Positions 10,525 to 10,760 of a stretch of 64,000 bases of DNA are shown here, piece after piece (within the stretch, counting starts at the first letter, position 1; the number at the start of each line of letters is the position of its first letter). This stretch comes from Escherichia coli (lineage in GTDB: Bacteria; Pseudomonadota; Gammaproteobacteria; Enterobacterales; Enterobacteriaceae). The notes below the pieces were generated by a model. It did no database searches. It saw only the letters and a list, made by a program, of their open reading frames with translations, and was not told the DNA's origin. The position numbers were made by a program, and so were the translations under genes. The stretch lies in the NCBI RefSeq assembly GCF_024223415.1, contig NZ_CP100503.1. One strand, 5' to 3'.

Positions 10525-10606
10525 TGATTTTTAAGTCAGGGAAAGTGAAAATAAAAACATGCCGCAAGGCGCGGCATGTATCCAATCAATCACAGGAGCT
10601 GAAAAT

Positions 10607-10681
10607 ATGAACACGGCATTCAAAATCATTATGGCCGGGCTGTTCTCTATCACTTTTGGCGGCATCGTCGCGCATGGGTAA
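10607..10681 (+). CDS. Small hydrophobic peptide, 24 aa (MNTAFKIIMAGLFSITFGGIVAHG)
   Basis: ATG preceded by AGGAG 7 nt upstream; below the ORF-track size cutoff; flanked by hairpins (10563-10580 and about 10718-10745). Confidence 0.3.
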   Translation: MNTAFKIIMAGLFSITFGGIVAHG

Positions 10682-10760
10682 GGGGAGTATATTAGCCATT
10701 TGGAACCCCACGGTCTCTTGCGGGTTTAATTAAGAACCCGCAAGAAAAACACGAATTGGG

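Follow-up and report, generated by a model that had tools for sequence, protein, structure and literature searches.

A small hydrophobic reading frame beside a type IC hsdR gene is probably the first cistron of the C1-repressed pmgT operon of P1-family phages

What is a 24-codon reading frame for a hydrophobic peptide doing between two stem-loops at the 3' side of a type I restriction gene? It lies on the plus strand of a 64,000-nt stretch of Escherichia coli DNA (the window), at 10607–10681 (MNTAFKIIMAGLFSITFGGIVAHG; ATG at 10607, TAA at 10679–10681), and a Shine–Dalgarno sequence, AGGAG, stands at 10594–10598, 8 nt upstream of the ATG. The sequence-only reading that drew attention to it saw a strong ribosome-binding site, two hairpins and a neighboring hsdR gene, took these for one setting, and suggested a small-peptide gene, perhaps for a type I toxin or a membrane-active regulator. 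The ORF, its Shine–Dalgarno sequence and the hairpins are indeed there, and both hairpins are stable: hairpin 1 (10557–10579, plus strand) folds at –14.2 kcal/mol (z = –4.1), hairpin 2 (10716–10745) at –19.9 kcal/mol (z = –7.3), and in neither case did any of 200 shuffled sequences fold as well. The length of the ORF alone is unremarkable, 169 ORFs of at least 20 aa overlapping the 11-kb stretch from 5000 to 16000; it is the Shine–Dalgarno sequence, the conservation and the synteny that lift it above chance. The same frame extends upstream to another ATG, at 10559, and a 44-aa PGAP model starts there. We rejected this start because it is within hairpin 1, has no Shine–Dalgarno sequence, and is absent from the other lineages described below.

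By sequence similarity, the window is a P1-like phage-plasmid. The segment around the ORF is matched best by pCDF6_3 (99.8%); the other matches are E. coli plasmids of ~95–100 kb, and phages of the P1 family match it, too. Aligned by blastn to P1 itself, window positions 8001–10685 correspond to P1 81786–84482, and positions 16897–20000 to P1 87970–91073, collinear with the first block. The genes of the left flank are P1 pmgQ, pmgR, pmgS and pap. The last of these (10002–10508, plus strand), the final gene of the pmgR-pmgS-pap block, codes for a 3'-phosphatase with an HAD_PNKP domain (Pfam PF25109), and is annotated as Pap or 3'-phosphatase in P1 and pCDF6_3. Between the two blocks, P1 has the genes pmgT to humD. 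The window has in their place a 6.2-kb type IC hsdRSM cassette on the minus strand (10686–16896; delimited by domain matches, blastn and a note in the P1 annotation), with doc, pdcB (DUF968) and lpa farther to the right. The junction of P1 backbone and cassette, at 10685/10686 by blastn and by alignment to P1, falls only 4 nt past the stop codon of the small ORF (TAAGGGG).

Exchange at this place has been described before. Among the published variable regions of P1-like phage-plasmids, the pmgT–humD interval is region 8 (PMC9603915), and one plasmid has a type I R-M system that replaces pmg genes in RD-5, ‘between pap and lxr’ (PMC6906374). The P1 GenBank record notes that 84263–84482 is 96–98% identical to DNA downstream of the EcoDXXI hsd genes and of R124/3 hsdR, and that 87969–88647 is homologous to DNA upstream of EcoDXXI hsd; P1-derived flanks of type IC hsd loci are the subject that the title of Tyndall et al. 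1997 announces (reference 364 in PMC12707154). The junctions of these EcoR124 and EcoDXXI loci are those of the window, and both are reproduced here. In the portions of the earlier descriptions available to us, the flanks are treated as DNA homology, with no mention that the left flank ends 4 nt past a conserved small ORF. The R124/3 homology in the P1 record, which starts at 84399, fits a truncation of the kind caused by IS1 in IncF plasmids.

The ORF thus belongs to the P1 backbone. Its counterpart in P1 has 28 codons (MNTAFKIIMAAIYFWLFSITFGGIVAHG; P1 84392–84475), ends 9 nt ahead of the pmgT start (84488), and is unannotated in the reference. The 177 bp from the pap stop codon to 4 nt past the ORF, which take in the OpmgT/Op88–PpmgT region, are nearly identical in P1 and the window. 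The P1 annotation (AF234172/NC_005856) treats the 165 nt from promoter to pmgT as leader, and calls no gene; in the window, where pmgT to humD are absent and hsdRSM occupies the opposite strand, instead, the ORF carries a 12-nt deletion. Because the convergent type IC cassette has replaced pmgT–humD, the ORF in the window is an orphan.

Upstream, the control elements of the P1 operon are all recognizable. The operator OpmgT (formerly Op88), a 17-bp asymmetric site for the C1 repressor, is present at 10508–10524 on the plus strand (ATTGCTCTAATAAATCT), identical to P1 AF234172 84293–84309. It is one of nine near-perfect C1 operator copies in the window, where none would be expected by chance, and the window encodes the repressor as well: c1, at 23837–24688 on the minus strand, specifies a protein that shares 279 of 283 residues (99%) with C1 of P1. 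The operator overlaps the two annotated pmgT promoters. These are predictions for sigma-70 that we transferred from P1 by alignment: P2pmgT, with its –35 hexamer at 10509–10514 and its –10 hexamer at 10532–10537, and P1pmgT, with TTGATT at 10524–10529 and GAAAAT at 10547–10552, both on the plus strand. Together they make up a predicted promoter region from 10509 to 10552; judged from these hexamers, transcription would begin at about 10557–10560, where hairpin 1 begins. At the level of sequence, then, the locus of the small ORF is the C1-regulated OpmgT/Op88 operon of P1.

Hairpin 1 accordingly looks like a leader structure, at what is predicted to be the 5' end of transcripts of the pmgT operon. 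Its arms, CATGCCGC (10558–10565) and GCGGCATG (10571–10578), enclose the loop AAGGC. A hairpin is equivalently placed in each of five diverged P1-family lineages, introduced below, with four different stem sequences among them: CATGCCGC/GCGGCATG, AGGCCAC/GTGGCCT, GGCCGC/GCGGCC and TTGGCAG/CTGCCAA. In two lineages the z-scores are weak (–0.9 and –1.0). Behind the hairpin comes a conserved leader at 10583–10598 on the plus strand, running from CAATCAATCA to the GGAG of the Shine–Dalgarno sequence, with invariant columns in a six-lineage-sample alignment. This CAATCA..GGAGC motif is invariant across lineages; L093 has a shorter form, CCAATCACCGGAGCC. In the predicted minimum-energy folds, leader, Shine–Dalgarno sequence and ATG are all unpaired.

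When read on the minus strand, hairpin 1 is followed by TTTTTATTTT, and so resembles an intrinsic terminator that faces hsdR. It is the sole terminator-like site between 10300 and 11000, in a scan for which shuffled sequence yields as many sites (mean 1.2). On that strand, the Salmonella-type lineages have no U-tract at all, and JK004, L015 and L093 have a weak or partial one; the tail is therefore probably a by-product of A-rich sequence close to the promoter. An Rfam search of the same stretch (10300–11000) in E-value mode returned only a sub-threshold match to GcvB on the minus strand, at 20.3 bits against a gathering score of 42, which we took for chance, probably driven by this terminator-like hairpin.

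Hairpin 2 has another history. It stands 16 nt past the stop codon (10761–10763) of hsdR, a gene that occupies 10761–13877 on the minus strand, convergent with the small ORF, and encodes the R subunit of a type IC R-M system of the EcoR124 family (Pfam EcoR124_C, T1R_D3-like, SWI2_SNF2 and HSDR_N). Its arms are CTTGCGGGTT (10717–10726) and AACCCGCAAG (10735–10744) around the loop TAATTAAG, and the stem can be extended to 12 pairs; one allele has an uncompensated mismatch. It has no U-tract on either strand, and the terminator scan of 10300–11000 did not call it. Every hsd-bearing locus has hairpin 2, and so do IncF plasmids with hsdR, from which IS1 has deleted the promoter, hairpin 1 and codons 1 and 2 of the ORF. 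On this distribution, hairpin 2 is part of the hsd cassette. Since the two hairpins differ in origin—one from the leader of the pmgT transcript, the other from the cassette—they do not frame a single unit, and here the sequence-only reading, which had placed the peptide gene between them as part of one arrangement, does not hold. We regard hairpin 2 as a structure in the hsdR 3' UTR, and suppose, speculatively, that the minus strand of hairpin 1 can terminate hsdR transcripts. In a Klebsiella phage with a divergent type IC hsdR, the hairpin downstream is unrelated, and resembles a terminator of the convergent gene.

How widely is the small ORF distributed? Of 19 phage records, 18 have the 28-aa peptide unchanged (100% identity), P1, P7, RCS47 and SJ46 among them. 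It also turns up in 872 plasmid records, and 882 of 5,426 complete E. coli genomes have it. P1-type DNA is nearly identical throughout, so conservation within the type tells us little. The company that the ORF keeps is more telling: in about 60 of 81 P1-type loci it has pmgT downstream, and no hsd gene at all, which gives the proposed association with hsdR no support. Its position beside hsdR in the window is the outcome of a cassette swap, and nothing points to a partnership in function.

The evidence that matters comes from farther afield. A P1-like plasmid of Salmonella has an ORF of 46 codons in the same position, after pmgS, and Cronobacter phage JK004 has one of 53 codons, annotated from an internal ATG, with the conserved Shine–Dalgarno sequence and ATG 45 nt upstream of that. 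An IMG/VR contig contributes a 48-codon version, and another metagenomic lineage a second one of 53. These five diverged lineages, P1 included, share one order of elements: C1 operator, –35- and –10-like hexamers, hairpin, CAATCA..GGAGC leader, ATG, ORF. The operator is kept in all five; the –35-like hexamer is equivalently placed in all (TTGATT, or TTGTTT in JK004 and TTAATT in L093), and so is a –10-like hexamer that ends in A-A-T or A-T-T. The GGAG, the spacer of 7–8 nt and the ATG are invariant in every lineage sampled. Throughout, the ORF specifies a single-pass hydrophobic peptide of 28–53 aa and stops between –4 and +9 nt from the start of the next gene: +9 nt in P1, +4 nt in the Salmonella type, and overlapping that start in JK004 and L093 (ATGA) and L015 (TGATG). 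What follows is not the same gene in P1 as in the other lineages, but in each it is there that the ORF ends.

Beyond these lineages the trail stops. An exhaustive profile search of 1.84 billion representative proteins found 11 at E < 1e-3; only P1-family lineages were matched, besides one spurious match within a protein of 4,536 aa. The peptide has no wider family. Nothing usable came from comparing the peptides with Pfam, NCBIfam, PHROGs and PADLOC, the single hit being a PHROG of unknown function at E = 0.16. For the products downstream, PmgT, PmgU and PmgV and their replacements, the matches are to PHROGs of unknown function, or are weak and Ren-like or MarR-like. None of the full texts searched contains the peptide, and nothing of relevance turned up for pmgT or Op88. 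Some annotators already list the ORF, as a hypothetical or membrane protein; the P1 reference annotation does not.

Is the ORF translated? The pattern of change points that way in four comparisons, and not in a fifth. Over the first 25 codons, four comparisons between lineages gave differences at first, second and third codon positions of 9, 5 and 15; 7, 3 and 14; 11, 3 and 15; and 4, 5 and 12, an excess at third positions that is borderline in each comparison (chi-square p = 0.02–0.07). In these four comparisons dS is saturated or ~2, and dN is 0.19–0.35. The JK004–L093 pair, compared over 53 codons, has neither indel nor stop; it displays no third-position bias and a dN/dS of ~0.56, so that the tail of the ORF is weakly constrained. 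The frame is kept in all lineages, the sole indel seen being the window's own, which is of 12 nt and in frame; the other two frames contain stops in most lineages. Four residues, M1, K6, A11 and W15, never vary among the homologues; F or I occupies position 5, and Y or F position 13. The peptides consist of one hydrophobic helix after a single N-terminal lysine, with an uncharged stretch of 15–20 residues after K6 and a best 19-residue Kyte–Doolittle mean of 1.85–2.34 in all lineages. The ORF thus behaves like the small hydrophobic peptide gene first proposed, kept in frame and in position in these lineages, and a translated small membrane protein is the best reading of the ORF, and a likely one.

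Four other readings deserve to be weighed against this. The most austere holds that there is no gene here, only an untranslated pmgT leader conserved as RNA or DNA, with the open frame incidental. The P1 reference annotation, with no CDS at this place, is in keeping with that, and so are the shortness of the ORF, of a size that is common, and the near-identity of P1-type DNA. It is hard to reconcile, however, with the manner in which the region has diverged: the leader upstream keeps its nucleotide motifs, and most of the changes within the ORF are at third codon positions; frame, hydrophobicity and Shine–Dalgarno–ATG spacing are maintained across lineages; and, whatever its length between 28 and 53 codons, the ORF reaches to the next gene and ends there. 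We consider this reading very unlikely. A translated leader, whose peptide has no function and whose translation serves to load ribosomes onto the next start or to unmask it, accounts for more. It would explain why, in all five lineages, the stop codon and the next start are so close together (–4 to +9 nt), why in the longer lineages the last codons of the ORF contain the Shine–Dalgarno sequence of the next gene, and why the C-terminal tails are variable and weakly constrained. It does not explain why the N-terminal 16–20 residues and their hydrophobicity persist when synonymous sites are saturated, or why the ORF stays intact in 17 hsd-bearing loci that have no downstream partner, although these loci are recent and closely related. 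Nor is the downstream ribosome-binding site consistently masked in the folds. The downstream genes each have a Shine–Dalgarno sequence of their own, and folding disclosed no masking of it that is consistent across lineages, so that the case for translational coupling rests on distance. A leader and nothing else is unlikely, in our view.

The hairpins, rather than the ORF, might be the functional feature, as transcription stops that shield hsdR from the early promoter of the phage, with the ORF merely lying between them. In its favor, nothing else in the region resembles a terminator as the minus strand of hairpin 1 does, ~180 nt downstream of hsdR, and the very stable hairpin 2 is close to the hsdR stop codon. 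Against this, hairpin 1 predates the insertion of hsd: P1 has it, too, and has no gene convergent at that place; IncF plasmids keep hsdR even though IS1 has deprived them of hairpin 1; hairpin 2, with a U-tract on neither strand, fails the terminator scan; and the plus strand has no terminator after the ORF. Insulation as the reason for the arrangement is conceivable and rather doubtful, and it is compatible, as a secondary effect, with the small-membrane-protein reading. Least probable is the suggestion of a type I toxin–antitoxin pair, in which an antisense RNA would restrain a membrane toxin, and might itself end at the terminator-like site on the minus strand of hairpin 1. The peptide has the right look, being small (24–53 aa) and hydrophobic with one transmembrane segment; in P1-type sequences the minus strand of hairpin 1 does precede TTTTTATTTT; and in the window, RNA that reads through from hsdR would be antisense to the entire ORF. 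But between 10300 and 11000 the minus strand has nothing like a promoter from which an antisense RNA might start, and beyond the P1 type the terminator-like tail is not kept. The ribosome-binding site is unmasked in the predicted folds, and the transcript folds with a z of only –0.9 in the window and –1.4 in P1, unlike hok-type mRNAs. The peptide matches nothing in Pfam, NCBIfam or PADLOC, which contain the known toxin families, and the ORF is no stand-alone locus: it has a C1 operator upstream and is followed directly by the next gene of an operon. A role as a membrane-active regulator, the alternative first raised, may still apply.

The reading that we prefer is that of a conserved cistron under phage control, overlooked in the P1 reference annotation, which is probably the first in the C1-repressed pmgT (Op88) early operon of P1-family phages. 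As we picture it, C1 would hold the pmgT promoter off in the lysogen. Upon induction, a transcript would be made that begins with a 5' stem-loop, probably as protection against decay. The peptide would be translated from this and inserted in the inner membrane, its N-terminus cytoplasmic if K6 obeys the positive-inside rule; the C-terminal tails of the longer lineages are acidic, and these would face the periplasm. The peptide would act through its transmembrane helix, with the conserved motif A-x-[YF]-x-W, and ribosomes that terminate at the end of the ORF would pass to the start of the next gene.

Proteins of this general kind are familiar. MgrB, AcrZ and MgtR are small single-pass inner-membrane proteins, and the peptide (24–53 aa) shares with them its size, its one hydrophobic helix with one basic residue at the N-terminus, and the concentration of conservation in the helix; it differs in having no sequence relation to the curated families, and in being placed under the control of a phage repressor. 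Hok, Ldr, Ibs, TisB, ShoB and Zor, the type I toxins, are likewise small hydrophobic peptides of comparable length, whereas the ORF has a protein repressor and an operon in place of any antisense RNA gene or masked ribosome-binding site that we could find. Leader peptides that couple translation to a downstream gene are known from tap/repA of IncFII plasmids and repY/repZ of IncI. These, too, are short ORFs, of 24–29 codons, that end at the start of the main gene or a few nt from it; the present ORF differs from them in its conserved hydrophobic N-terminus, with no evident antisense regulator and no conserved structure to mask the start.

If the peptide is made, P1, the model phage, gains another early repressor-controlled gene, this one for a membrane protein, and the gene marks the exact left edge of the region in which P1-like elements swap cargo, restriction systems included. 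P1-like phage-plasmids are present in about one in six complete E. coli genomes. For the window, the practical lesson is a negative one: the peptide is no accessory of the type I restriction system, and gives no sign of being half of a toxin–antitoxin pair. A convincing terminator was not found on the plus strand after the ORF in the window, and so transcripts from the pmgT promoter would run on, antisense, into hsdR unless Rho stops them. This antisense run is speculative, as is the ending of hsdR transcripts at hairpin 1. A bolder version of the preferred reading, to which we give little credence, would have the peptide be a membrane-active early effector, silent in the lysogen, that is either toxic or regulates a membrane protein, of host or phage, by way of its A-x-[YF]-x-W helix; with operator, promoter and leader, it would form the fixed left anchor of a cargo-exchange hotspot, and in hsd variants derepression would send antisense RNA into hsdR. 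Were that antisense transcription to occur, the shut-off of restriction would be tied to prophage induction.

The copy in the window is not a typical one. It is a deletion form of the 28-codon P1 ORF, from which CGATCTATTTCT has gone, turning A-A-I-Y-F-W-L into A-G-L with the loss of four codons in frame. Two of the four invariant residues, A11 and W15, go with them, as does the Y or F of position 13, and the uncharged stretch after K6 shrinks from 20 residues to 16. Such a loss may have impaired this copy, and it may be that the ORF is decaying here, now that its operon is gone. The deletion allele is rare, with a full-length match only in pCDF6_3 among the 5,426 complete E. coli genomes, and in 17 other hsd-bearing loci the ORF has kept its 28-codon form.

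The type IC hsdR-hsdS-hsdM cassette of the window (10686–16896; 6.2 kb) stands in place of the pmgT-humD segment of P1, and its limits are exact: 4 nt past the stop codon of the small ORF (10607–10681, + strand) on one side, and the phd promoter region on the other. The junctions noted in the P1 record for EcoDXXI and R124/3 are the same as these. Several peptide variants in the database (P0002, P0003, P0008, P0011, P0019 and P0021) carry differing C-terminal extensions that set in at the stop codon or shortly ahead of it, and these sequences suggest that the 3' end of the small ORF is the exact site of further cargo junctions or frameshifts. 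In a set of 5,426 complete E. coli genomes, only plasmid pCDF6_3 shares at full length the window's own allele, with its 12-nt in-frame deletion.

In the IncF plasmid pEco1162T7a, a remnant of the small ORF adjoins hsdR (3990–4085 of locus L005), cut by IS1 at codon 3 and so lacking both promoter and start codon. This IS1-cut form lies beside hsdR in approximately 324 plasmid records, and the homology boundary noted for R124/3 in the P1 record agrees with it. Within the cassette, a promoter-like site (TTAACA, 18-nt spacer, TATTTT; 13942–13971, – strand) occupies the hsdS–hsdR gap just upstream of hsdR, and would give hsdR a promoter of its own. An ORF of 107 aa runs antisense to the phd region (16886–17209, – strand); it has no match in Pfam and is probably spurious.

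The PGAP model WP_001312275.1 (44 aa; locus L002, 1660–1794) begins at the window's ATG at 10559, within hairpin 1, the stem-loop at the predicted 5' end of the transcript. This start is probably mis-called, because the conserved Shine-Dalgarno sequence and ATG of the small ORF place the start 48 nt downstream. Gene_94 of Cronobacter phage JK004 (L007, 2712–2873) is annotated from an internal ATG at 2757, as a protein of 38 aa; from the conserved start at 2712 it encodes 53 aa, transmembrane segment included. The leader motif CAATCAATCA-nn-GGAGC (10583–10598) is nucleotide-invariant in the window, in JK004 and in loci L003, L006 and L015, lineages among which the flanking sequence has diverged; a shorter CCAATCACCGGAGCC is kept in the leader of locus L093. 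The motif may serve to enhance translation or to bind a protein.

Besides OpmgT, the window contains eight near-perfect copies of the operator of the P1 repressor, C1, at 8367–8381, 8418–8432, 22137–22151, 25250–25264, 31388–31402, 32753–32767, 42914–42928 and 58364–58378. These copies would map the C1 regulon of the window's phage-plasmid.
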